Part shown: positions 3,983 to 60,040 of the stretch, piece after piece
Position numbering within the stretch: position 1 is the first letter of the stretch
How the letters are laid out: each line of letters starts with the position of its first letter
Source of the DNA: a candidate division CPR2 bacterium GW2011_GWC2_39_10
GTDB taxonomy: Bacteria > Patescibacteriota > CPR2
Assembly (NCBI GenBank): GCA_000993275.1
Contig: LBVV01000003.1
Span: 1-60,040, forward strand
Length of the DNA: 60,040 bases
Direction of reading: 5' to 3'
Program-made: the position numbers and the translations under genes
The notes under the pieces: model-generated
What the model was told of the DNA's origin: nothing
The model's input: the letters and a program-made list of their open reading frames with translations, nothing else
The model's database searches: none

Positions 3983-4270
3983 TCGTCAATAAACAAAAAA
4001 AAGATAACAATTAGCAGTTTCTATCGTTTCTTTTTTTCTGTTTATTGCTTATTGTTTATTGTTATTTACTTTCATAACTCACTTAATATAGCAAAAAAAC
4101 ACCTGAAAGTAAAGAAAATGTGAGGCAAATCTAAGGTAACTGCTCACAATCTTTAAAATTTGATCTTAAAATTTCTCCACCATTATTTGTCAACTTGACC
4201 CAAGAATCCATACTTTCCGGATCCCAGATCCCATACGGGTTTTTCAACAAGTCGGGATAACAACAAGGAT

Positions 4271-7189: not shown

Positions 7190-7310
7190 CTGCCAAATGC
7201 AATTTCCTAATTAATCACCCCTTTTTTCATATTTATTATTTTTGAAGAACCAACATTTTAACCGATTGATAAATATACAACCTAATCAATAATTTGTCAA
7301 GCCTTTTTTG

Positions 7311-7483
7311 CTGACCCACGTGCAGTTTTCTTTGTGTCATTCCCGCGTAGGCGGGAATCCAGAGGGTATGGATTCCAAATCGAGCCTGCCTCGCTTTGCT
7401 CGTCAAGGCAGGTTTGGAATGACAAATCTAAGGTCAATTTTTAACAAGTTTATGAGGAGTTTGTAAGAGTGCACGTGGGTCAG
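7311..7483. mobile_element. 173-bp MITE-like unit: 14-nt perfect terminal inverted repeats enclosing a hairpin doublet
   Basis: CTGACCCACGTGCA (7311-7324) pairs with TGCACGTGGGTCAG (7470-7483). Inside are GTCATTCCCGCGTAGGCGGGAATC (7336-7359) and GGATTCCAAA...TTTGGAATGAC (7370-7423). There is no ORF. Confidence 0.55.
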
Positions 7484-7546: not shown

Positions 7547-7622
7547 TTGGTCGGCCTGCTGGGATTTGAACCCAGGACCCCCGCTTTATAAGAACGGTGC
7601 TCTAACCCCTGAGCTACAGGCC
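7547..7622 (-). tRNA. tRNA-Ile with genomically encoded UAU anticodon, CCA encoded
   Basis: The reverse complement CGGCCTGTAGCTCAGGGGTTAGAGCACCGTTCTTATAAAGCGGGGGTCCTGGGTTCAAATCCCAGCAGGCCGACCA folds as a cloverleaf. The anticodon stem is CCGTT/AGCGG and the loop is CTTATAA. Confidence 0.85.
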
Positions 7623-7675
7623 GAAGAAATGTTGGATTGTTTAATTTGATTTTTAGATTTTAAATTTGTTAACGG

Positions 7676-7825
7676 ACTTATTTGAACCAAGATTTGTTCG
7701 TCCAGGGCGGAAACCCGCGACCCCCGCTTTAGTCGCCGTTTTTTTTATTTATTTTATATGTTGTCGGCGGTATTAGCTCTGAAGAGCTAATTAAGAACGG
7801 TGCTCTAACCCTTAAGCTACAGGCC
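7676..7825 (-). pseudogene. Disrupted tRNA-like paralog of the adjacent tRNA-Ile
   Basis: The 5' half GGCCTGTAGCTTAAGGGTTAGAGCACCGTTCTTA and the segment TAAAGCGGGGGTC match the intact gene. They are separated by a ~59-nt hairpin-rich insert inside the anticodon loop. The T-arm is degenerate and no complementary acceptor 3' strand is present. Confidence 0.5.
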
Positions 7826-11269: not shown

Positions 11270-12194
11270 GCTTTCCCTCCATTTCTAAAACTACGTCCTC
11301 TAAAACTTCCAAATAATTTATTCTGGCCGGACAATAAACAATACACCTGGAACAACCCACACAACCCAACTTACCATATTCCTTGGGCATCCGCACAAAC
11401 TTATGATAATACCAATTATAAATCCGTTTTTTTAATTCCGGTCTAAAATTAAAACCTCCGCCAATTTCGGTAAACGCGGAAAGCATGCAGGAGTCCCAAC
11501 ACCGCGTCCTGGTACTATTGCCTTTAAGATCGAAGCTATCTTGAACATCGAAGCAATAACAAGTCGGGCAAACATAACTGCATATTCCGCATCCGAAGCA
11601 ACGCTGAGACAAATCGTCCCAAATTTTACTGCCGTAGCTTTTTTCTACCGCCTCAGACAAACGCTTATGAGATAAAATGTCATCAAAATGAAATAAGTTT
11701 TTTTCAGAAGTAATTTTACTGTTTTTGATTAGAAGCGGCGTGCCGGCAAGCTTTAAGCCCAAAGGCGATCCAACCGTAACCAAAAAATAATCATCAATAA
11801 CCTGAAGGTACAAATCATATCCATCTTTTGGGGCCGTAAAATGATCCATGCCCACAATTAAAAATTGTTCCCTGACATCAAAATATTCCTGATCTATTAT
11901 TGGGTACTTAAAAACCTTATCAAGTATGGCAATTCCGGCAATATCGCTAAAATGAAGACCGACCAAAGCTTTATCTTTTTTCCCGGGTCCTAAAAACAAC
12001 TCCCGTTTATATGGAAAAATAAATTTTTTCGGTCCTTGAGGGGATAATCTGGGATTAAAAGCAACATACTTGGCAGCCACTTTCTCGAAATGGGCTTCGT
12101 GCTGAGTTTCTGATACGGGCGCAAAAAGCTCATATTTACCCTCCAAATATTCAAAAAAAAGTGTTAAATTTTCTTCTCTTAAAATAAATGTCAT
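11241..12194 (-). CDS. hydB: Hydrogenase beta subunit, 4Fe-4S ferredoxin-domain protein
   Basis: CFGCGICSYVCPTCYC and CVGCSRCIVYCP cluster motifs. Its start overlaps the stop of the upstream receiver gene (ATGA). Confidence 0.8.
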   Translation of the reverse strand: MTFILREENLTLFFEYLEGKYELFAPVSETQHEAHFEKVAAKYVAFNPRLSPQGPKKFIFPYKRELFLGPGKKDKALVGLHFSDIAGIAILDKVFKYPIIDQEYFDVREQFLIVGMDHFTAPKDGYDLYLQVIDDYFLVTVGSPLGLKLAGTPLLIKNSKITSEKNLFHFDDILSHKRLSEAVEKSYGSKIWDDLSQRCFGCGICSYVCPTCYCFDVQDSFDLKGNSTRTRCWDSCMLSAFTEIGGGFNFRPELKKRIYNWYYHKFVRMPKEYGKLGCVGCSRCIVYCPARINYLEVLEDVVLEMEGKRGKKPLRVK

Positions 12195-14744: not shown

Positions 14745-14765
14745 AAAAGCCCCTCTTCGGGGCCT
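14745..14765 (-). terminator. Rho-independent terminator after the 279-aa ORF, upstream of the hydrogenase operon
   Basis: On the minus strand: GGCCCC-GAAGA-GGGGC followed by TTTTAAAT. Confidence 0.65.
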
Positions 14766-14801
14766 TAGTTGTTTATTGTTTATTGTTTATTGTTTCTTTT
14801 C

Positions 14802-15641
14802 TTAGTTGATGTCCTTAGCTAGTGTAATTGCGTAATATCCGTCGAGAGTTTGATATTTTGATATTACATCGATACCCGCTACATCATTATTTTCTAAGAT
14901 TTCATGGATATAGTCTTTTGCAGTTGCAATATCCAATATCCCATCGGCAGAATCAAGACGATTATGAATGTAGCCGCCACAGCCATTGCCATGGTTAATA
15001 ACGATACAAGTTTTGGCACCGGTTTCTTTACATGCTTCGATAAGTTGCAGAGTGGCATAATTTTCGATTGTCTTGTTAAATCTGCCGGCAAAAATACCAA
15101 TATTGCCCGGGCTCCCAAGCACAAAAGGCATTTCATTTTTTTCAAGCAGCCGCGAAATGTTAAACCAGGCGAAACGAAAATCAACGCATTGACGTAAAAT
15201 AACTCCAAAACTGCTATAGTCAATTTCGACTTCATCAATTCTGCCAATCACTTCTATGTCTTTATCAATAACAAAACCGGCAATTAGTTTTTTTAAATCT
15301 TCCAGATCCTTATAAACATCTCTGCCGGGGGTGAACGCAAGTCCTTTTCCGGGAAGAACAATTTCTACAGTCTCGATAGAATCGGCATGCAAAGCAATGC
15401 CAAGATTCCGGATCATTGTTTTCTTAATAGTTTTGCCGGCCAAGCCTAAAAATGACTCATGGATTGCCGGACTAGAATAAGTGTACGGATGAAGACGATC
15501 TTTTTTATATGCTTTTTGTACCGCATCCCAACATATTTCCGGAGTTGTGATAATTATTCTTTTTGGGGGCTCGGCCCTTGTTGCCAAAATTTCTTCACGT
15601 CTCTTTTTGGTTTTGTGTTGAATATCGGTTGAAGTAGTCAT
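14802..15641 (-). CDS. Hypothetical cytoplasmic protein (279 aa), family not recognised
   Basis: Long ORF with coding-like composition. It contains IVINHGNGCGGYIH. It is bounded by repeat arrays and a terminator. Confidence 0.55.
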   Translation of the reverse strand: MTTSTDIQHKTKKRREEILATRAEPPKRIIITTPEICWDAVQKAYKKDRLHPYTYSSPAIHESFLGLAGKTIKKTMIRNLGIALHADSIETVEIVLPGKGLAFTPGRDVYKDLEDLKKLIAGFVIDKDIEVIGRIDEVEIDYSSFGVILRQCVDFRFAWFNISRLLEKNEMPFVLGSPGNIGIFAGRFNKTIENYATLQLIEACKETGAKTCIVINHGNGCGGYIHNRLDSADGILDIATAKDYIHEILENNDVAGIDVISKYQTLDGYYAITLAKDIN

Positions 15642-15836
15642 AAGTCTCCTTTTGTTTTTTAAGCTGCCATGTTTTTACTATACAAAGAGATATTTTAAAG
15701 CTTAAATCGGTTAAAGTCAAGAACAAGAAACAATAAGCAATAAACAAAGAGCAACAAGCAGAAAAAAGTGACATTACATCAGACAATGAATGAGAATGTT
15801 CTCTTGCTTATTGTTTATTGTTATTTGTTTATTGGT

Positions 15837-16640
15837 TTACAGCCATTCTACCTTACGGTTATTCAAATCTTCCGTCATTTTTTTTATGTCTTTTTCAAGA
15901 CTGACTAATCTTTGCAGTTCCTGCTCGCTAACGATATCTTTTAAAATATCCTCCGACAAAACAGTGGGAGATTCTATCTTAAAATCAGCCAGTTTTTTCT
16001 TTTCGACGTCAATTTTGGCAGTATCTTTAGCCTCAACGGCTTTTGTTAGGTTTTCTATTATTGATGACAGACCCTTAAGTTTACCAATTAAGCTTTCATG
16101 AAATTTCTTAAACGCCGGTGCGGGCTTTGTCTTCTCTAGGTCAGAAATGTCCTTAATCATCATTTCTCGCCATCTGGCAAAATCTCCAAGAGGGTCGGCG
16201 GCTTGAATTTCCTGGCCCTGAATGTCTTTTTTTACTTTTTCAATTTTTAGGGCATATTCCGAAATAGTAATTGAGTTGGTTGAAATTTTTTCGGAAATTC
16301 GGTAATAATCAATTGTTTTTTGCTTTAAATATATTCCGCCAACCGTCGGCCTTAATTTTTTGGCCTTCTCTTTTGAGCTTGTCGATATATCTTTCATCTT
16401 GCGGTAGAAATTAAGGTCTTTGCCCAAGTCAATTGTGCCGTCACCCGTCACAAAAGTTGAAGCCGTCCAAGTTTTGGCCGACTCATTTATGAGGGCAGAA
16501 ACATCAGCCGAAAACTGTAGGTTGCTTCGACCCTTAAAATAGCCGTAAAATATATAAATTACAACGAGACAAACAATAGATGCTACATAAATCTTTCGCA
16601 TCTTGGGGTCAATTTTTTTTCGCCGTTTCCTTTTCGCCAT
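15837..16640 (-). CDS. Hypothetical membrane-anchored coiled-coil protein
   Basis: Lys/Arg-rich N-terminus followed by one TM helix (IYVASIVCLVVIYIFYGYF). The remainder is charged and helical. Confidence 0.55.
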   Translation of the reverse strand: MAKRKRRKKIDPKMRKIYVASIVCLVVIYIFYGYFKGRSNLQFSADVSALINESAKTWTASTFVTGDGTIDLGKDLNFYRKMKDISTSSKEKAKKLRPTVGGIYLKQKTIDYYRISEKISTNSITISEYALKIEKVKKDIQGQEIQAADPLGDFARWREMMIKDISDLEKTKPAPAFKKFHESLIGKLKGLSSIIENLTKAVEAKDTAKIDVEKKKLADFKIESPTVLSEDILKDIVSEQELQRLVSLEKDIKKMTEDLNNRKVEWL

Positions 16641-18949: not shown

Positions 18950-19684
18950 TTAAACCGTTTCCGGCATTTTAACAAATTTCTTAATCTTTCTTATTTCTAT
19001 GCCCTGTTCGTCTTGTCTGTCAACAACGGAGTTTAGTTTTCGCTCCATTCTTTCCTGACCGGATTCTAAGCTACCAACCCGCACATTTAATTCGGAAACA
19101 TTTTGTTTGAGAGAGGATATATCATCTTCAATTCTAGTAATATGCGGTAGAATTAATTGATCTACACCCTCGTTAAAAACATTAATCATTCGACTTTCTA
19201 AAATTTCAGACTGTTCCTTAAAACGGGTATCTGTCAGCTTGGTCTGTTCCTTAAAACGAGTATCTGTCAGCTTGGTCTGTTCCTTAAAACGAGTATCTAT
19301 AACCTGTCCGAAATGCTTGGTCTGTTCCTTAAAACGAGTATCTATAACCTGTCCGAAATGCTTGGCCTGTTCTTGGAAACGCGTATCTATAACCTGTCCG
19401 AAATGCTTGGCCTGTTCTTGGAAGCGGGTATCCATTACTTTATTTAAATTCTCAGACTGTTCCTTAAAACGGATATCCATCACTTTACTAAAAGTATCTG
19501 ACTGCTCTTGGAGGCGTGCATCCATCACTTTACTAAAATTCTCAGATTGTTCCTCAAAACGAACATCCATAACCTGATCAAAATGATTGGACTGTTCTTG
19601 TAAACGATTATCTATAACCTGACCTAGATTCTCTACCTGTTTTGCCAATAGCTCTTCAATTATTTTCTTATCTTTTATATCCAT
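18950..19684 (-). CDS. Tandem-repeat coiled-coil protein of unknown function
   Basis: Eight or nine 15-aa repeats (consensus F-x-Q-V-[MI]-D-T-R-F-x-E-Q-x-K-H) plus two 11-aa repeats, then a heptad-like C-terminus. The likely start is MDIKDKK at 19684. Confidence 0.65.
   Translation of the reverse strand: MDIKDKKIIEELLAKQVENLGQVIDNRLQEQSNHFDQVMDVRFEEQSENFSKVMDARLQEQSDTFSKVMDIRFKEQSENLNKVMDTRFQEQAKHFGQVIDTRFQEQAKHFGQVIDTRFKEQTKHFGQVIDTRFKEQTKLTDTRFKEQTKLTDTRFKEQSEILESRMINVFNEGVDQLILPHITRIEDDISSLKQNVSELNVRVGSLESGQERMERKLNSVVDRQDEQGIEIRKIKKFVKMPETV
19195..19640. repeat. Coding tandem repeat, 45-nt period (plus two 33-nt units)
   Basis: Near-identical units ggtctgttccttaaaacgagtatctataacctgtccgaaatgctt at 19239-19430, with more diverged units to ~19640. 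Confidence 0.9.
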
Positions 19685-23968: not shown

Positions 23969-24176
23969 AGCTGCTCCCTTCCCACTGTCGCATGATATTC
24001 TTCCCAGACGGGTCGTATTGCGAGCCCTTCGACCTTGCTCAGGATAAACTTCGTGAAACGAAGCCCTAAAGTACCAAAAAATTCAAGTTCTCCACCTGTC
24101 TCGCTTAAGCGAAGCCAAGGCGGACCCTCTGCGAGGAGTCGAACAATATATCTATGGTTTAGCGGGAAGGAGCAGG
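23969..24176 (+). repeat. Structured ~208-nt intergenic element closed by a 12-13-bp outer stem; its core is repeated at 35631-35736
   Basis: Outer inverted repeat AGCTGCTCCCTTCCC (23969-23983) with GGGAAGGAGCAG (24164-24175). The core TTCTTCCCAGACGGGTCGTAT..CGAGCCCTTCGACCTTGCTCAGGATAAACTTCGTGAAACGAAGCCC recurs inverted at 35631-35736. Confidence 0.75.
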
Positions 24177-30537: not shown

Positions 30538-30555
30538 ACTTCCTCCAGTTATATT

Positions 30556-30588
30556 CAATAAACAATTAGCAATAAGCAATTAACAAAG
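30556..30588. repeat. Left 33-nt terminal inverted repeat of the four-helix-bundle ORF cassette
   Basis: CAATAAACAATTAGCAATAAGCAATTAACAAAG matches the reverse complement of 31115-31147 at 31 of 33 positions. Confidence 0.85.
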
Positions 30589-30593
30589 GCAAA

Positions 30594-30950
30594 TCAAATG
30601 TTTGCCTTTTCCTTAACCTTATTCATTAAAACCCACAATATTTTACCAATTTCTTCAGCCAATGTTAAGGCGTCATTATAATCTTTTTTATTTAAATATC
30701 CTTCATCGCTACAAAAATGAAGCAAATATTTGGTTTCCTTTAGGGAACCATAGGCAATTTGCAAGAACTGTTTAAAGCTCCTACTGCTTTGTCTGGCATA
30801 TCCCTCAACAATATTTAAAGGAACTGATAATACTGCGCGCCTTAATTGAGAAGTTATTCCATAAACCTCTTCTTTTGAAAAATCTCTAGTAAATTTATAA
30901 ACCAAATGAGCTAATTGATCTGATTTATAGTATAAAGGATTACTCTGCAT
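30594..30950 (-). CDS. Four-helix-bundle protein (23S rRNA intervening-sequence protein / Avd-like family)
   Basis: Family-typical FTRDFSKEEVYGITSQLRRAVLSVPLNIVEGYARQS...FLQIAYGSLKETKYLL, 118 aa. Confidence 0.8.
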   Translation of the reverse strand: MQSNPLYYKSDQLAHLVYKFTRDFSKEEVYGITSQLRRAVLSVPLNIVEGYARQSSRSFKQFLQIAYGSLKETKYLLHFCSDEGYLNKKDYNDALTLAEEIGKILWVLMNKVKEKANI

Positions 30951-31114
30951 GTTTTTTCTTACCTTCTTGCTTACTCTTTTATTTTTATTGTTAATTGTTT
31001 CATATTATTTAAATTATTGATTTTCTGGATTCCCGCCTTCGCGGGAATGACAAGGGGTGTTGCGGGAATGACAGTGTGTAGTATGAAAATGACAGGGGTG
31101 GGATTAATCATTTT

Positions 31115-31147
31115 CTTTGTTTATTGCTTATTGTTAATTGTTTATTG
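31115..31147. repeat. Right 33-nt terminal inverted repeat of the four-helix-bundle ORF cassette
   Basis: CTTTGTTTATTGCTTATTGTTAATTGTTTATTG. See 30556-30588. Confidence 0.85.
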
Positions 31148-31162
31148 ATTATTAGGCTTCGC

Positions 31163-35630: not shown

Positions 35631-35736
35631 GTTCGACCTTGTGGAGAACTACATTAATGTAACTTCAGGGCTACGTTTCACGAAGTTTATTCTGAGCAAG
35701 GTCGAAGGGCTCGTCATACGACCCGTCTGGGAAGAG
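35631..35736 (-). repeat. Second copy (inverted) of the ~100-nt element core seen at 23998-24144
   Basis: The reverse complement reads CTCTTCCCAGACGGGTCGTATGACGAGCCCTTCGACCTTGCTCAGAATAAACTTCGTGAAACGTAGCCC...GTTCTCCACAAGGTCGAAC. Confidence 0.8.
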
Positions 35737-35896
35737 AAATACGAGGGTTTTTCGGACACAAGTGCGTAAGTCCTATAATTGAGGCATTGATAATTGGTTA
35801 AAAATTGTAAATTCAGGATTAATAATTTTTTTAAATTCGGCATTTTCAGTTTCCCGCCTATGAGGGAATGACATCAAAAAATTAAGGTTTCTTGAA

Positions 35897-35932: not shown

Positions 35933-37099
35933 ATGAAATTATCTATTGGCATTGTTGGTCTTCCTAACGTTGGGAAGTCAACATTATTTAATGCCCTAAC
36001 TAAAAATCAAGTGGATGCCAAAAATTATCCGTTTTGCACAATCGACCCAAATGTGGGCATTGTTAGCGTTCCGGATGAACGGCTGTATCCTTTAGCTACA
36101 GCGGTTAAAACTGAAAAAATTATTCCGGCCATTGTGGAATTTACAGATATTGCCGGAATTGTTAAGAACGCTCATAAGGGTGAAGGCTTGGGAAATAAAT
36201 TTTTGTCACATATCCGAGAAGCGGATGCCATTTTGGAAGTAGTCAGGGTTTTTGAGGATTCCAATGTCCTTCACGTTGACGGAAATATCAATCCCACTTC
36301 CGATATAGAAACAATTGCCATGGAACTTATATTTGCCGACCTAGCCAATATGGAAAAGGCTATCCAAAGGACCGAAAAATTAGGTAAAACTGAACCTAAA
36401 GAAGCGGCTTTGCAAATGCCGGTGCTTAAAAAAGTTCAAAAGTGGTTGGAAGAAGGAAAACCCGCAAGGGCACTTTTAAACAACAAACATAATCGTCATT
36501 CTGAATTTAGTTCAGAATCTCATCTATCACGAGACCAGATCCTGAAACAAGTTCAGGATGACACTAAAAGCAACCTTTCTGAAAAAGAACTGGAAATTTT
36601 AAAACCTTTGAATTTGATAACTCTAAAGCCTCATATCTACGCTTTTAACGTTTCGGAAGCCGATTTGGTAAAACCAAAATTGCCGGAGATGAAGGAAGAT
36701 TATGTCGTCTTTTCAGCCAAGTTAGAACAAGACCTGCAAGATTTATCTGATCCGGAACAAAAAGAATATTTACAGGAACTTGGCATAGAGGATACCGGCC
36801 TTAACCGACTTGTTAAAAAAGCTTATGAAAATCTAGGGCTAATAACCTACTTTACGGCCGGCGAAAAAGAAGTCCGCGCATGGACCATAAAAAAAGGTTG
36901 GAGCGCTCCACAAGCCGCCGGAGAAATACATACAGATTTTGAAAAAGGCTTCATTTCGGCAGACGTTGTCAATTGGAAAAATTTAGTGGCATTTGGCTGG
37001 CAGGGCGCTAAAGAAAAAGGCAGAGTAAGAGCAGAAGGCAGAGACTATATTGTAAAAGACGGCGATGTCATGATTTTTAAATTTAACGTGAGCAAATAA
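35933..37099 (+). CDS. ychF: Ribosome-binding ATPase YchF
   Basis: MKLSIGIVGLPNVGKSTLFNALT G1 motif, DIAGIVKNAHKGEGLGN, and a C-terminal TGS-like GRDYIVKDGDVMIFKFNV. It carries an extra ~30-aa segment (see findings). Confidence 0.9.
   Translation: MKLSIGIVGLPNVGKSTLFNALTKNQVDAKNYPFCTIDPNVGIVSVPDERLYPLATAVKTEKIIPAIVEFTDIAGIVKNAHKGEGLGNKFLSHIREADAILEVVRVFEDSNVLHVDGNINPTSDIETIAMELIFADLANMEKAIQRTEKLGKTEPKEAALQMPVLKKVQKWLEEGKPARALLNNKHNRHSEFSSESHLSRDQILKQVQDDTKSNLSEKELEILKPLNLITLKPHIYAFNVSEADLVKPKLPEMKEDYVVFSAKLEQDLQDLSDPEQKEYLQELGIEDTGLNRLVKKAYENLGLITYFTAGEKEVRAWTIKKGWSAPQAAGEIHTDFEKGFISADVVNWKNLVAFGWQGAKEKGRVRAEGRDYIVKDGDVMIFKFNVSK
36495..36562 (+). repeat. Hairpin doublet inserted in frame within ychF
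   Basis: GTCATTCTGAATTTAGTTCAGAATC (36495-36519), a 18-nt spacer, then GATCCTGAAACAAGTTCAGGATGAC (36538-36562). It is translated as RHSEFSSESHLSRDQILKQVQDD. Confidence 0.85.
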
Positions 37100-39766: not shown

Positions 39767-40495
39767 TTATTTAAAATAAATCAAAAATTCTTTATTGCCT
39801 TTGGCGCCTTCAATTGGGGATTCCGCTTGACCTAAAACTTCAAACCCTTGGCTTTGTGTAAAAGTTACAATATCATTTAGCGCATCTGTTCTAATTTTTT
39901 GATCAGTTATGACGCCCTTGTAACGATCGGCAATTTCTTTTCCGACTTCAAATTGAGGCTTTACCAAGCAAATAATATCCGCTTTTTGAGTTTGATCTTG
40001 AATAATACTTTTGATATGAGGAATGATTTTTTTTAGGGAAATAAACGAAACATCGCAAACAAAAATATCAATTTTTTCCGGTAAATTTTGTACGTCTAGA
40101 AAATGAGTACGTTCCATATTAATAACCCTCATGTCCTGCCTTAATTTATGTGCCAGCTGACCGTAACCAACATCGATAGCGTAAACCTTTTTAGCGCCAT
40201 TTTTTAAAACAAAATCCGTAAAGCCACCGGTAGACGCACCAATGTCACAAACAATTTTATCCTGAAAATCCAAATTGAACTCTTGAAAAGCTTTCTCTAA
40301 CTTTAAAGCTCCTCTCGAAACATAAGGAAATGCCTCTTTTACCCAAACATTAGCCTCGACGTCAACCTGTTCCGCCGGTTTTTGAACTTGTTGTTCGTCA
40401 ATATAAACCTGGCCGGCCATAACCAGCCGCTTAGCCCTTTCCCTGGAATCAGCAAGTTCTTTTTCCACCAATATTTCATCAATTCGTTTTTTCAT
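39767..40495 (-). CDS. tlyA: TlyA-family rRNA 2'-O-methyltransferase
   Basis: S4-like N-terminus (RIDEILVEKELADSRERAKRLV) plus FtsJ-type motif CDIGASTGGFTD. The likely start is ATG 40495. Confidence 0.85.
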   Translation of the reverse strand: MKKRIDEILVEKELADSRERAKRLVMAGQVYIDEQQVQKPAEQVDVEANVWVKEAFPYVSRGALKLEKAFQEFNLDFQDKIVCDIGASTGGFTDFVLKNGAKKVYAIDVGYGQLAHKLRQDMRVINMERTHFLDVQNLPEKIDIFVCDVSFISLKKIIPHIKSIIQDQTQKADIICLVKPQFEVGKEIADRYKGVITDQKIRTDALNDIVTFTQSQGFEVLGQAESPIEGAKGNKEFLIYFK

Positions 40496-40616
40496 CGAAA
40501 GTCCTTTCATTATTTTCTAGATTCCCGCCTCCGCGGGAATGACAAGAGAAGAATGTTCCATCAATTTTTTTTCATAGTTTAAGAATAGCAGAAAAACTTT
40601 TTATATAACAGCAGCT

Positions 40617-40974
40617 GTCATCCTGAATTTATTTCAGGATCTACAAAATCCTCTATAATAAGGTCATGCGAAGCTATGTTTATATTTTGTCTAACAAAAA
40701 AGAAGGTGTTTTGTATATTGGAGTTACTTCAAATTTAATTAAAAGAATATATGAACATAAACAAGGATTTGTTGATGGGTTTTCAAAGAAATACAACACC
40801 AAAGATTTGGTTTATTATGAAACATTCGATGATATTGAAAATGCAATATTGAGAGAAAAGAAATTAAAAAATTGGCATCGTCAGTGGAAATTAAATTTAA
40901 TTAATGATTTTAATCCTAGCTGGATTGACCTATATAACTCTCTACTATAGATCCTGAACTAAATTCAGGATGAC
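40617..40974 (+). mobile_element. Candidate minimal cassette: GIY-YIG ORF bracketed by inverted 25-nt hairpin repeats
   Basis: GTCATCCTGAATTTATTTCAGGATC (40617-40641) and GATCCTGAACTAAATTCAGGATGAC (40950-40974) are reverse complements of each other apart from one loop base. Confidence 0.5.
40666..40950 (+). CDS. Minimal GIY-YIG nuclease-domain protein (UPF0213-like, 94 aa)
   Basis: YVYILSNKKEGVLYIGVTSNLIKRIYEHK ... REKKLKNW signature. Confidence 0.85.
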   Translation: MRSYVYILSNKKEGVLYIGVTSNLIKRIYEHKQGFVDGFSKKYNTKDLVYYETFDDIENAILREKKLKNWHRQWKLNLINDFNPSWIDLYNSLL

Positions 40975-41135
40975 GAGTTGGGGGGGTTTTGAATTACTGA
41001 ACAGGAATTATTATATCCCAAATTAAAGAGAATCAGGCTTAAAAACAAACTAATGAATCTCCCCTAGGTAAGCTGGCGGGAAATTAACCCACAACTGAAA
41101 GATTAAAACAACTTATTCATTCATTTGGCCTAACA

Positions 41136-41162
41136 TCAAAAAGAGCTAAATGCTCTTTTTTG
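41136..41162. terminator. Bidirectional terminator downstream of efp
   Basis: AAAAAGAGC-TAAAT-GCTCTTTTTT. Confidence 0.65.
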
Positions 41163-41208
41163 ATCAATCTATAAACCAATCAACCTATCAGTCCACTAAA
41201 CTAACAAC

Positions 41209-41769
41209 CTACTTAACTCTCTCCACGTAACTCCCCGTTCGAGTGTCGATGCGGATTTTGTCGCCTTGATTTATAAATAAGGGGACATTTAGAACCTGTC
41301 CGGTTTCGATGGTAACCGGCTTTGAAGCAGAAGTGGCCGTATCGCCCTTCACTCCTTTTTCAGCCAGAATTACCTCAAAATCCATTTTAATTGGCAGCTG
41401 AACGTTAATGGGACTGTCTTTAAAATAAGAAACGTCAACGAACTCGCCTTCTTTTAAATAATTGACATCTGTTCCTAAGTCTTCGATAGATAGCGTAAAC
41501 TGATTATAGCTTTGGTTATCCATAAAATGATATCCTTCTTCATCTGCATACGTAAACTGGGCGCTTCTTCTTTCCAATCTTGCCGGTTGAATTTTTTCGC
41601 CGCCTTTAAAACTGGTTTCGTAGGAAGAACCAGTGAGCAAGTTTTTAAGTTTTGCCTTTAAAACCGCTCCGCCTCGTCCCATTTTTATATGCTGATAGCT
41701 CAAAACAACGTGAGGAGCACCGTCTATTTCTATTGTAACGCCGGTTTTTAAATCGTTAATACCATACAT
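41209..41769 (-). CDS. efp: Elongation factor P
   Basis: 186 aa, with HIKMGRGGAVLKAKLKNLLTG and the EF-P OB-domain layout. Confidence 0.9.
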   Translation of the reverse strand: MYGINDLKTGVTIEIDGAPHVVLSYQHIKMGRGGAVLKAKLKNLLTGSSYETSFKGGEKIQPARLERRSAQFTYADEEGYHFMDNQSYNQFTLSIEDLGTDVNYLKEGEFVDVSYFKDSPINVQLPIKMDFEVILAEKGVKGDTATSASKPVTIETGQVLNVPLFINQGDKIRIDTRTGSYVERVK

Positions 41770-41997: not shown

Positions 41998-42123
41998 TAA
42001 GGCTCCTTTCAGTCGCCAACAAGCAATTAACAATTAGCAATAAACAGTATTGTTAATCTTTTAAGCTATGTACTAATTTGTTAATTGTTCCTTGTTTGTT
42101 GTTTATTGTTTATTGTTTATTGA

Positions 42124-42549
42124 TTAAAACGGTATGTCGTCGATGTTAATTTCTTCTTCGGTAACGGCTTCAGCAATCTTCTTATCGACTTCTTTAGTAG
42201 TTTGCGGGCCACCTTCTTTAGGCCTATCAACAAAGTTAATATCTGTTGCAACGATCTCGGTTTTTTGTCTTTTAGAACCATCCTGAGCTTCCCATGATCT
42301 TGTTTGAAGTCGCCCGACAACCAATACTTTTCTGCCTTTTGTCAAAAATTGAGAAGATAGTTCAGCCATCTTGCCCCAAATTACAATGTCATGATATTCA
42401 ACTGCGTCTTTTCTTTCGCCTGTTCCGTCTACCCAAGATCGATTTGTTGCCACAGACACAGATGAAACTGGCTGGCCGCCTGGAGTATATCTAAGTTCCG
42501 GGTCTCTGGTTAAATTACCTAGTAATATTACCTGTTGAAAATCTCTCAT
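42124..42549 (-). CDS. ssb: Single-stranded DNA-binding protein
   Basis: OB-fold N-terminus (ILLGNLTRDPELRYTPGG) and an acidic tip ending DDIPF. Confidence 0.9.
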   Translation of the reverse strand: MRDFQQVILLGNLTRDPELRYTPGGQPVSSVSVATNRSWVDGTGERKDAVEYHDIVIWGKMAELSSQFLTKGRKVLVVGRLQTRSWEAQDGSKRQKTEIVATDINFVDRPKEGGPQTTKEVDKKIAEAVTEEEINIDDIPF

Positions 42550-43413: not shown

Positions 43414-43941
43414 ATGAGAATGTTTTCAACCGTTTATAACATGCCGGTCAATTCCTTAAATGAAGGAATGACTGTTGGTGTTGTTGAAGACATCATTATA
43501 AATCCGGATACCGGACAAGTCTTGGGCTTCAAGCTTTCCGAGACATCAATTAGAGAGAGATACATTTTAGTAGCCTCCGATATTCGCGAAATTAATGATC
43601 TTATGTTAATTATTGACGATTCTCAAAATTTATCCACTTTGGATGAGGTAATTAAAATTGCTGAAGTTGTCGGCAAGAAAATAAAGTGGATGGGCATTAA
43701 GGTTGAAACGGATTTGGGTAGAAAGCTGGGTAAAATAGAAGACCTGGCTTTTGACACAACTAATTTTTATTTAACCAGAATTTATACATCAGGCGGCCTA
43801 ATAAAGGAAGCCTTATCGCTAGAAAAAACTATCATTCCTGCGAACAAAATTATTAAAGTTACTAAAAAAGTGGTTATTGTTGAAGACAGTTATGTCAAAA
43901 ATAAAAAAAGTAGCGAAGCAATCGCCCCGGAAGCTGCATAG
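43414..43941 (+). CDS. PRC-barrel domain protein (two barrels)
   Basis: VGVVEDIIINPDTGQVLGFKL and LGKIEDLAFDTTNFYLTRI motifs. The start is ambiguous (GTG 43396 or ATG 43414). Confidence 0.5.
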   Translation: MRMFSTVYNMPVNSLNEGMTVGVVEDIIINPDTGQVLGFKLSETSIRERYILVASDIREINDLMLIIDDSQNLSTLDEVIKIAEVVGKKIKWMGIKVETDLGRKLGKIEDLAFDTTNFYLTRIYTSGGLIKEALSLEKTIIPANKIIKVTKKVVIVEDSYVKNKKSSEAIAPEAA

Positions 43942-52380: not shown

Positions 52381-52794
52381 GCTAATAATATAGCTCACTA
52401 ATTCAAAAATCAAAAGTCAAATGTCAGAAAGATACTTAGTGATATAAAATTAAATCCTAAATCCTAATTTTAAAATTGCGTAAGTAATGTCCATATCTAT
52501 TTGCATTGAATTTTCAATTCAAGTTCCAATTTTCTTGTATTGGACAAGACTAGGCCCTTCGCAAGTTGGTCGTTTTTCTTTGATTTGTTTAGTTTTTGGG
52601 ATTTAGACATTAGGTTATATTTGTCATTTTTCGCCCTAGGCGCCCGTCTGCCTCGGGCAGGGATCAGCCTTTGGCTGAGATATTTGATATTAAAGCACCC
52701 CTCCCCTAACCCCTCCCAAAGGGAGGGGAAAGACAAGACTGTTTATTGTTTATTGTTTATTGTTATTTGTTTTCTGGTTCCTGGTTTCTGTTTC

Positions 52795-59714: not shown

Positions 59715-59943
59715 AAAAATATTATATCAAAATAGTTATCAAATTGATTCGTCATTTGAGACCGATGAAAAAAGTTTTTTAGAGTGCCATTGTCCATACG
59801 GATCCGTACCGTGACGAGTAACGAAGCAATCTTCTTACGTTCGAAACAAGATTGCCGCACTCTCCGGCGGCTGCCGGATCGTTCGCAATGACATTTTTGG
59901 GGAGTTTTGTGGGCGGTCTCTTGCGATCTCTCAGCATTTTGAT

Positions 59944-59958
59944 CTGACCCACGTGCAG
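59944..59958 (-). repeat. Copy 4 of the CACGTG-core motif (CTGACCCACGTGCAG)
   Basis: Reverse complement of the motif at 85-99 and 7469-7483. It is preceded (59780-59900) by nested palindromes of the hairpin families. Confidence 0.9.
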
Positions 59959-60040
59959 TTTTTTAAATTTCTTTCAAAATTGGCCAACAAAATCCAGATT
60001 TATCTCTTTTCCGGTAAGAAACCGAGATATTTCAGCAGTA

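Follow-up and report, generated by a model that had tools for sequence, protein, structure and literature searches.

Within a 60,040-nt stretch of the genome of candidate division CPR2 bacterium GW2011_GWC2_39_10 (contig LBVV01000003.1, positions 1 to 60,040; this whole stretch is called the window below), we analysed a small open reading frame (ORF) encoding a 94-aa GIY-YIG nuclease, here named ssn, together with the inverted hairpins on either side of it and the hairpins of similar design dispersed elsewhere in the window. The gene sits between efp and tlyA, on the strand opposite to the operon formed by these two genes, and the hairpins that flank it are probable members of a class published as 'Ssn-related motifs' (SRM). 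The features on which the argument turns are as follows.

40666-40950, + strand: ssn, an ORF with an ATG start (94 aa, from the ORF listing), single-domain GIY-YIG nuclease assigned to the Ssn family
40617-40641, recognisable strand +: left SRM hairpin of the 5-nt-loop 'CCTGAA' class, GTCATCCTGAATTTATTTCAGGATC, read as GTC-ATCCTGAA-TTTAT-TTCAGGAT-C
40950-40974, - strand: right SRM hairpin, inverted and of the same class, read on the - strand as GTC-ATCCTGAA-TTTAG-TTCAGGAT-C
40496-41208: 713-nt block that splits the efp-tlyA operon and is absent in relatives; it contains ssn, three hairpins and an unassigned stretch of 234 nt
36495-36519 (+ strand) and 36538-36562 (- strand): gene-less inverted hairpin pair inside ychF, 18 nt apart, each arm folding alone
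36476-36571, + strand: in-frame 32-aa insertion in YchF (residues 182-213), LNNKHNRHSEFSSESHLSRDQILKQVQDDTKS, holding the hairpin pair

The layout that the original prediction had read from this DNA, a 94-aa GIY-YIG ORF held between two 25-nt hairpins in inverted orientation, is borne out at these positions, as are its finer points: the reverse complement of the right hairpin (GTCATCCTGAATTTAGTTCAGGATC) is one loop base apart from the left hairpin, and the first base of the right hairpin is the G of the TAG stop codon of ssn, a 1-base overlap. In both flanking hairpins the palindrome is preceded by GTC and followed by C, and when folded as single-stranded DNA (ssDNA) the left one reached a dG of -6.8 kcal/mol (z -3.5) and the right one a dG of -6.3 (z -4.5). 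Searching the window with GTCATCCTGAA-N5-TTCAGGATC at ≤3 mismatches returned 4 occurrences (36495+, 36538-, 40617+ and 40950-), among them the pair without an ORF that had likewise been predicted inside ychF (36495-36562); the same pattern occurred 0 times across 100 dinucleotide-preserving shuffles. Copies of the left hairpin that are 100% identical over 25-29 nt are also present in Colwellia (L006) and Doudnabacteria (L011) loci.

The encoded protein matches the GIY-YIG model PF01541 over residues 3-77 (E=2.5e-16), and a Pfam scan returned GIY-YIG and the related T5orf172 only, with no HUH/Y1 (TnpA-REP) transposase found. Against the Neisseria gonorrhoeae SsnA orthologue (L174:1501-1782), which is also 94 aa long, BLASTP gave 50% identity over 90 aa, gap-free, with E=3e-35. 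Residues Y6, Y17 and E64 are present with numbering identical to that of the published mutants of Neisseria meningitidis (Nm) SsnA, and all three are invariant in two alignments of Ssn homologues (11 and 50 sequences; A2 and A3). An AlphaFold2 model of the protein forms a single compact domain (pLDDT 94.6) whose fold matches in the Protein Data Bank (PDB) are all GIY-YIG proteins, namely BH0048, EF2693, Slx1 and the UvrC N-terminal domain. The best of these structurally (TM 0.58) is the UPF0213 protein BH0048 (1zg2), which is also the sole PDB sequence match, at a marginal E=0.007 and 19.6 bits; a structure of Ssn itself was not found in the PDB, either by sequence or by fold, and NCBIfam gave no family-specific model for the protein, its matches all being sub-threshold. 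Because the similarity to BH0048 is only that marginal, the 'UPF0213-type' label attached by the original prediction is imprecise and points to a neighbouring family: going by sequence, the two share a superfamily and are probably of different families. By its sequence the protein very likely belongs to the branch of small GIY-YIG proteins that the literature names Ssn, or cd10448.

This branch was described by Chenal et al. (Nat Commun 2025; PMC11893778), who showed Ssn proteins to be single-domain GIY-YIG enzymes specific for hairpin repeats in ssDNA, generalised the Neisseria repeat NTS (CGTCATTCCCGCGMAVGCGGGAATCYRG) to SRM, and identified N. meningitidis NMV_0044 as ssnA (94 aa, CDD cd10448). 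Among the genes for NMV_0044 homologues, SRM lie nearby in 71% and on both sides in 42%, giving the layout NTS/SRM-ssnA-SRM, and enzyme activity was shown in vitro: SsnA and three homologues bind the hairpin as ssDNA only and cut it a few nt upstream, with no cleavage of the reverse strand, of double-stranded DNA (dsDNA) or of RNA, and the Y6A, Y17A and E64A mutants retain binding and lose cleavage (PMC11893778). The same study found the C right after the palindrome to be most critical for binding and the three bases before the palindrome to be most critical for cutting, reported that altering the stem sequence with the structure kept abolished the activity of Nm SsnA, placed Rickettsia among the genomes richest in SRM, and showed that in Neisseria the activity restricts incoming transforming ssDNA bearing NTS. 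Its Discussion likens the layout to insertion sequence (IS) elements, to IS200/IS605 and to the transposases of repetitive extragenic palindromic (REP) elements and bacterial interspersed mosaic elements (BIME), and raises a mobility hypothesis, and a 2026 preprint uses SsnA-NTS loci as a benchmark class of natural repeats. The pairing of small nuclease and dispersed hairpin, of which the original prediction knew no description, was therefore already in print, and so was the comparison with REP elements and their REP-associated tyrosine transposases (RAYT). That comparison is apt as far as the inverted repeats round a small nuclease gene go; the HUH/Y1 enzyme that it would call for is absent.

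The system is known and characterised, and the locus in the window is a further example of it. The E=3e-35 of window Ssn against the gonococcal orthologue far exceeds the homology criterion of E<1e-10 against Nm SsnA used in the paper (PMC11893778). We hold with high confidence that the locus consists of ssn and its cognate SRM hairpins and that it encodes an ssDNA-specific GIY-YIG endonuclease of the Ssn family; from homology, the enzyme would share the biochemical activity of its characterised relatives and would most likely cut the 5-nt-loop class that flanks it.

To place the locus in a wider context, we compared two independent sets of 80 homologous loci each from named genomes (160 in total). 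Set 1 held the closest relatives of window Ssn, at 55-70% identity, from Deferribacteres, several groups of the Candidate Phyla Radiation (CPR), Campylobacterota, Gamma- and Alphaproteobacteria, Melainabacteria, Bacteroidota and others, and set 2 was seeded from NTS-flanked homologues. Hairpins were detected as GTC[AT][CT] with a stem of ≥6 and a loop of 3-8, the base after the palindrome lying outside the rule, and all hairpin counts are lower bounds because longer SRM variants, among them GTCATTGCGAGG...CGAAGCAATC of L093, a Patescibacteria metagenome-assembled genome (MAG), escape this rule. Hairpin density was 4.66/kb at ≤250 nt from the gene vs 0.32/kb further away in set 1 and 4.62/kb vs 0.39/kb in set 2, which is about 12-15x higher near homologous genes across many phyla, and the near-gene hairpins of set 1 numbered 182 vs 3.5 in shuffled sequence. 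The flanking by hairpins proposed from the single locus therefore recurs among its relatives. C follows the palindrome in 296 of the 310 hairpins near homologues, agreeing with the published binding determinant, and the architecture GTC-palindrome-C is found near the gene in 133/160 loci, with stems that vary widely and whose two arms change together (ATTCCCGC, ATCCTGAA, ATGCTGAA, ATTGCGGA, ATCGTGGC and others). The arrangement seen in the window, with a + hairpin upstream and a - hairpin downstream, is the commonest in both sets (37/80 and 49/80, respectively).

Approached from the hairpin, the relationship looks different. The exact window hairpin (identical 25 nt) occurs in at least 120 stretches from many unrelated phyla, and ssn lay within 2 of 120 8-kb stretches picked by the exact hairpin vs 2 of 79 controls, equal to background. 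The gene predicts nearby hairpins, and the hairpin does not predict a nearby gene; as ssn is this rare among hairpin-bearing stretches, the hairpins are best described as dispersed repeats and the gene as their rare embedded partner. On these sequence comparisons, we regard the nuclease gene and the dispersed hairpins as functionally linked, and the link as real and general.

The published search pattern for SRM, HGTCWYN(0-2)YYVSBRHN(0-5)WNVSBRGN(0-2)RNCYNB, captures part of this hairpin population. Across the 160 loci it matched 120 of 195 hairpins with a 4-nt loop vs 11 of 168 others, and it found a match near 72 genes vs 133 for our more general rule; the 5-nt-loop class, to which the hairpins flanking window ssn belong, is large and mostly missed by it. 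Hairpin class also tracks two protein residues, positions 71 and 69 being the most informative of all those scanned: N69 accompanies the 5-nt-loop class and K69 the 4-nt-loop class (36/9 vs 6/66, odds ratio 44), and at both positions together N/H vs K/N follows 5-nt vs 4-nt loops. Kinship was corrected by clustering only, not phylogenetically, and at the level of 40 clusters (70% identity) the association was 13/2 vs 2/11 (p=4e-4); clustering at 60% and 65% identity gave 2 and 6 clusters, too few, and the 70% level was used. Window Ssn has N69/H71, consistent with its 5-nt-loop flanks, and in the AlphaFold2 model the two residues sit at the turn between the helix that bears E64 (57-69) and the next helix (72-82).

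Comparison with relatives shows that the locus arrived in a formerly compact operon. The window has 713 nt between the efp stop and the tlyA start. The closest relatives of its EF-P are from a Crystal Geyser MAG (91%) and then from Patescibacteria/Saccharibacteria MAGs (48-59%), and contigs with an identical Ssn protein come from groundwater metagenomes. In L090, whose EF-P is 91% identical to that of the window, the whole block is absent and exactly 5 nt, at base level, separate the efp stop from the tlyA start, which supplies the empty site that an insertion would leave in a relative. L090, L091 and L092 all keep a tight rpsR-efp-tlyA order with efp-tlyA gaps of about 1-25 nt, so the 713-nt state of the window is the derived one. 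To the right of the right hairpin, 234 nt of the block (40975-41208) gave no match in about 330 collected loci or elsewhere in the window. A stem-loop, AAAAAGAGC-TAAAT-GCTCTTTTT, stands within the block at 41138-41161, about 50 nt past the efp stop and with A/T runs on either side; it may terminate efp in the split operon, and the consensus terminator scan did not call it. In L093 the ssn homologue lies downstream of tlyA, a different position from that in the window. Tandem arrays of the longer SRM variant (GTCATTGCGAGG...CGAAGCAATC paired with GATTGCCGCGCTAACGCTCGCAATGAC) surround that gene at L093:10430-11000 and 11444-11496, and in L093 the space between efp and tlyA is occupied by two ORFs, unrelated and on the opposite strand.

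The hairpin pair in ychF tells of a further insertion. With MKLS at 35933 taken as the start, residues 182-213 of YchF find no equivalent in the proteins of Escherichia coli (8kie_y, between residues 197|198) or Haemophilus influenzae (1jal), which are ungapped there, and the pair is therefore part of an in-frame insertion. L090 carries hairpins at the same site of ychF, its left stem differing by two double (compensatory) changes, TCTGAA/TTCAGA vs TCCGCA/TGCGGA.

The window holds about 10 hairpin copies of all kinds in its 60 kb. The original prediction had also noted hairpins with shared edges and other stems scattered through the window, and these were recovered at 7336, 7372-7423, 31029, 35848-35872 and 40521. 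Three of them, at 7336(+), 31029(-) and 40521(-), share a second stem type with GTCAT...ATC edges, GTC-ATTCCCGC-N4-GCGGGAAT-C, which by sequence is NTS itself.

7335-7362, + strand: NTS-class SRM hairpin, fits the published degenerate SRM pattern
31025-31052, - strand: NTS-class SRM hairpin, fits the published pattern, with a truncated half-copy adjoining
40517-40543, - strand: NTS-class SRM hairpin, GTCATTCCCGCGGAGGCGGGAATCTAG, 22 nt ahead of the start codon of tlyA (dG -8.9, z -3.9)
7372-7423, - strand: composite SRM-like hairpin, GTC-ATTCCAAA-(33-nt inner hairpin)-TTTGGAAT-C
35848-35872, - strand: degenerate NTS-class hairpin just upstream of ychF

The strict published pattern has 2 matches in the window, those at 7335-7362 and 31025-31052, vs 0.11 expected by chance; on our own reading, the hairpin at 40517-40543 fails it at one loop position. 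We consider it highly probable that the ychF pair and the dispersed copies are members of one repeat population with the hairpins flanking ssn. A further hairpin at 43451-43472 (GTCATTCCTTCATTTAAGGAATT) is doubtful as an SRM, as its palindrome is not followed by C and it is located within a reading frame. The truncated NTS half-copy, GCGGGAATGAC, is at 31062-31072 (region 31052-31072), beside the complete copy, and suggests local decay or partial duplication of the repeat. At gathering threshold, Rfam returned two tRNAs and nothing else in the window. At a permissive threshold it returned a sub-threshold match to the Francisella small RNA FtrB on the - strand at 40486-40564 (29.8 bits vs a gathering value of 66, E=0.011), which overlaps the NTS-type hairpin at 40517-40543; given this overlap and the Ssn homologues held by Francisella genomes (P0078, L046), FtrB itself may include an SRM hairpin.

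Were window Ssn to act as its characterised homologues do, a hairpin would extrude, or form once the DNA is single-stranded, and the enzyme would bind it, recognising the sequence of the stem and the C that directly follows the palindrome, while the GTC that precedes the palindrome would guide hydrolysis of the same strand a few nt upstream. By homology with the Neisseria and Wolbachia enzymes, it would be inactive on dsDNA, on RNA and on the complementary strand. The left copy is recognisable on the + strand and the right copy on the - strand, which places the predicted cuts just outside ssn, one on each strand. Gene and hairpins would have arrived within the 713-nt insertion into the formerly tight efp-tlyA operon. 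Two roles are candidates: the enzyme may restrict ssDNA that enters the cell with SRM sites, as SsnA does in Neisseria, or it may serve to spread the repeat.

Several observations weigh against assigning the locus to the Ssn/SRM system with its flanking hairpins as cognate sites. The hairpins on either side of ssn and the pair in ychF do not match the published degenerate SRM pattern, which we take as a limit of that search pattern and not as a defining property of the family. Because these flanks miss the pattern and Nm SsnA needs its own stem sequence, the cognate pairing is argued from co-occurrence. Homology is likewise what speaks for cleavage by window Ssn, and for cleavage of the 5-nt-loop class, and the protein behind our identity value is the gonococcal orthologue, whereas the assayed protein is SsnA of N. 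meningitidis. Orientation is not fixed in the family either: the opposite hairpin arrangement occurs in 11/80 loci (a count from set 2), and the gonococcal gene, with canonical NTS copies on its flanks, is itself arranged opposite to the window. Finally, the window has two hairpin classes but one ssn gene, so that the NTS-class copies would reflect a second enzyme elsewhere, relaxed specificity, or relics.

Assignment of the protein to the Ssn family leaves its function open to a different account, in which the hairpin-ssn-hairpin unit forms an autonomous mobile element equivalent to REP/RAYT or IS200/IS605 but with a GIY-YIG enzyme; this account is compatible with the enzyme assignment and competes with restriction on function alone. 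We regard such an element as possible and on balance doubtful, and give no better standing to its mechanism, by which Ssn would excise and insert the unit and multiply gene-less hairpins and pairs via ssDNA intermediates. The block is a derived insertion in a conserved operon, the ssn of L093 lies elsewhere in the same operon, a gene-less inverted pair sits in frame within ychF, and both the relatives at 55-70% identity and the identical 25-nt hairpins in at least 120 stretches are spread over many, often unrelated, phyla; the idea was also raised by Chenal et al. (PMC11893778). Glaciecola sp. 1036 also speaks for it: there, a bounded unit of ~528 bp with ~50-nt terminal inverted repeats holding the hairpin is present in three copies, ~92% identical and in differing contexts (L038:2839-3366, L059:2848-3372 and L039:72-598), one of them on a 598-nt contig, as is typical of a collapsed repeat. 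These copies have, however, diverged by about 8% and evolve under purifying selection (pN/pS 0.05-0.17), so that old, maintained paralogues fit as well as a transposon. A 25-nt tandem repeat, GAATCGTTATTGAGCTAGCTACATA, in three copies abuts the left end of the unit in L039. At the window locus, inverted repeats of the Glaciecola type have no counterpart, end-to-end identity stops at the hairpin plus 'TA', and a target-site duplication was looked for and not identified. The 713-nt indel exceeds the hairpins by 121 nt on the left and 234 nt on the right, and all 21 of 21 contigs with the exact protein share the locus, nine of them being 100% identical over 900 nt, which argues against recent movement. 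Hairpin orientation round the gene is variable, unlike the fixed ends of IS elements. GIY-YIG enzymes hydrolyse DNA without a covalent intermediate, and strand transfer or rejoining by Ssn would consequently need host functions. The transposase-like role implied by the original prediction is not supported, since the activity demonstrated for the family is hydrolytic ssDNA cleavage beside a hairpin and the 713-nt insertion is not bounded by hairpins.

Two further explanations would leave the proximity of nuclease and hairpins without meaning, and both are very improbable. In one, the hairpins are intrinsic terminators or mRNA-stabilising stem-loops of tlyA, efp and ssn, and their closeness to a GIY-YIG gene is coincidental. 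Their position between convergent or divergent genes, with the right one beginning at the ssn stop codon, would suit such a role, and REP-like hairpins can influence mRNA stability. A terminator scan of 40300-41400, however, called none of the three hairpins near ssn, and none is followed by a T-run, so they are not ordinary terminators, and with L090 lacking the block there is an insertion polymorphism that plain terminators would not show. The same hairpin is moreover paired inside the ychF reading frame, GTC...C-edged hairpins are enriched round homologues to the extent given above, and those edges are the nuclease's published determinants (PMC11893778). In the other, the ORF encodes a free-standing homing endonuclease of the GIY-YIG type, acting on dsDNA at empty efp-tlyA sites and spreading by repair-mediated gene conversion, the hairpins being incidental. 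GIY-YIG homing endonucleases exist, the locus shows presence/absence polymorphism, and the protein has a weak NCBIfam match to a group I intron endonuclease (17.9 bits vs a cut-off of 56). Set against this, the protein has 94 aa and no DNA-binding domain beyond the catalytic core, homologues occupy unrelated genomic contexts and not a single homing site, characterised homologues have no dsDNA activity (PMC11893778), and the hairpin association would go unexplained. An Ssn-family ssDNA endonuclease with its cognate SRM hairpins remains our preferred reading.

More speculatively, and with a little less conviction than we give to the mobile element itself, Ssn and its hairpins could jointly form a self-spreading ssDNA element of a new enzymatic class, with a GIY-YIG 'transposase' whose products are rejoined by host repair and with residues 69/71 setting the 4-nt or 5-nt hairpin class. 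If so, gene-less doublets would be its non-autonomous derivatives, settling in frame in essential genes (ychF) and splitting operons (efp-tlyA) even in minimal CPR genomes, and residues 69/71 would offer a handle for re-targeting ssDNA nucleases.

The window and the homologous loci also hold features that stand apart from these questions. A 45-nt unit (15 codons) is repeated in tandem 8-9 times at 19199-19641, the copies being 63-95% identical. Blocks of a motif with a 7-nt period (TTGTTTATTG / CAATAAACAA), in both orientations, sit at many seemingly intergenic sites (4015-4072, 14765-14803, 15713-15838, 30548-30597, 31113-31152, 42009-42130 and 52733-52790), and the rpsR-ssb spacer with one such block measures 126, 78 or 12 nt among strain contigs. 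Four copies of CTGACCCACGTGCAC, a motif with a CACGTG palindrome, occur in both orientations (78-117, 7293-7332, 7445-7483 and 59937-59982), two of which bracket the hairpin cluster at 7.3-7.5 kb. The tRNA gene at 7551-7623 has a 34-nt piece (7589-7622) that recurs 203 nt away, at 7792-7825, with 94% identity; this duplication may be an integration scar, and SRM hairpins lie on both sides. A 74-nt inverted repeat has its arms 11.6 kb from each other, at 23999-24072 and 35662-35735, with 93% complementarity; the second arm shortly precedes both ychF and the degenerate hairpin at 35848. Among the homologues, the ssn of a 'Candidatus Peribacteria' MAG (L043:2989-3279) has four in-frame TGA codons, all at the relatives' conserved Gly, which indicates that its host reads UGA as glycine (genetic code 25) and that the gene has long resided in that lineage.

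What a minimal GIY-YIG nuclease does with a dispersed hairpin repeat was an open question until 2025 and has now been answered in outline; the locus in the window extends the Ssn/SRM system to CPR/Patescibacteria with their tiny genomes. Some CPR/Patescibacteria are known to take up DNA, and to such hosts it could be of relevance that ssDNA entering the cell is cut by a nuclease at marked sites. The polarised insertion into an operon, the in-frame hairpin pair in YchF and the three-copy unit in Glaciecola are natural examples that bear on the unproven mobility, and the under-detected 5-nt-loop class that co-varies with two residues is relevant to the programmable ssDNA cutters proposed from Ssn.

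Compared with known systems, the window protein resembles the UPF0213 proteins (BH0048/1zg2 and E. coli YhbQ) in size, in its single GIY-YIG domain and in a TM of 0.58 to BH0048, and differs in that the sequence similarity is marginal and the subfamily is probably another; we know of no hairpin association for UPF0213 proteins. Rickettsia palindromic elements (RPE) insert in frame in protein-coding genes and measure about 100-150 bp. The ychF pair is like them in being a palindromic repeat tolerated as an in-frame peptide, here 32 aa in YchF, although RPE are longer. With REP/RAYT the locus shares a lone small nuclease gene between inverted copies of a dispersed palindromic repeat, probably many repeats per genome with one or few genes, and inverted doublets (BIME-like), as in ychF; whereas RAYT use an HUH tyrosine with a covalent intermediate, Ssn proteins use GIY-YIG hydrolysis. 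IS200/IS605 TnpA, a Y1 HUH transposase, also recognises subterminal hairpins in ssDNA and cleaves a short distance away in its 'peel and paste' reaction, but both ends of those elements are on one strand, whereas the window hairpins are inverted, with predicted cuts on opposite strands, and Ssn is unrelated to TnpA. Set beside the Ssn/SRM system of Neisseria, the window differs in its host, a CPR/Patescibacteria-like groundwater bacterium and not a proteobacterium, in flanks with stem ATCCTGAA and a 5-nt loop that the published pattern misses, in N69/H71 vs the K69/N71 of Neisseria-like proteins, and in a hairpin orientation that is the reverse of that in N. gonorrhoeae. It agrees with that system in a 94-aa protein with a single GIY-YIG domain, Y6, Y17 and E64, and 50% identity to the gonococcal orthologue, and in GTC + palindrome + C hairpins that are dispersed over the 60 kb of the window, concentrated at the gene and accompanied there by canonical NTS-type copies.

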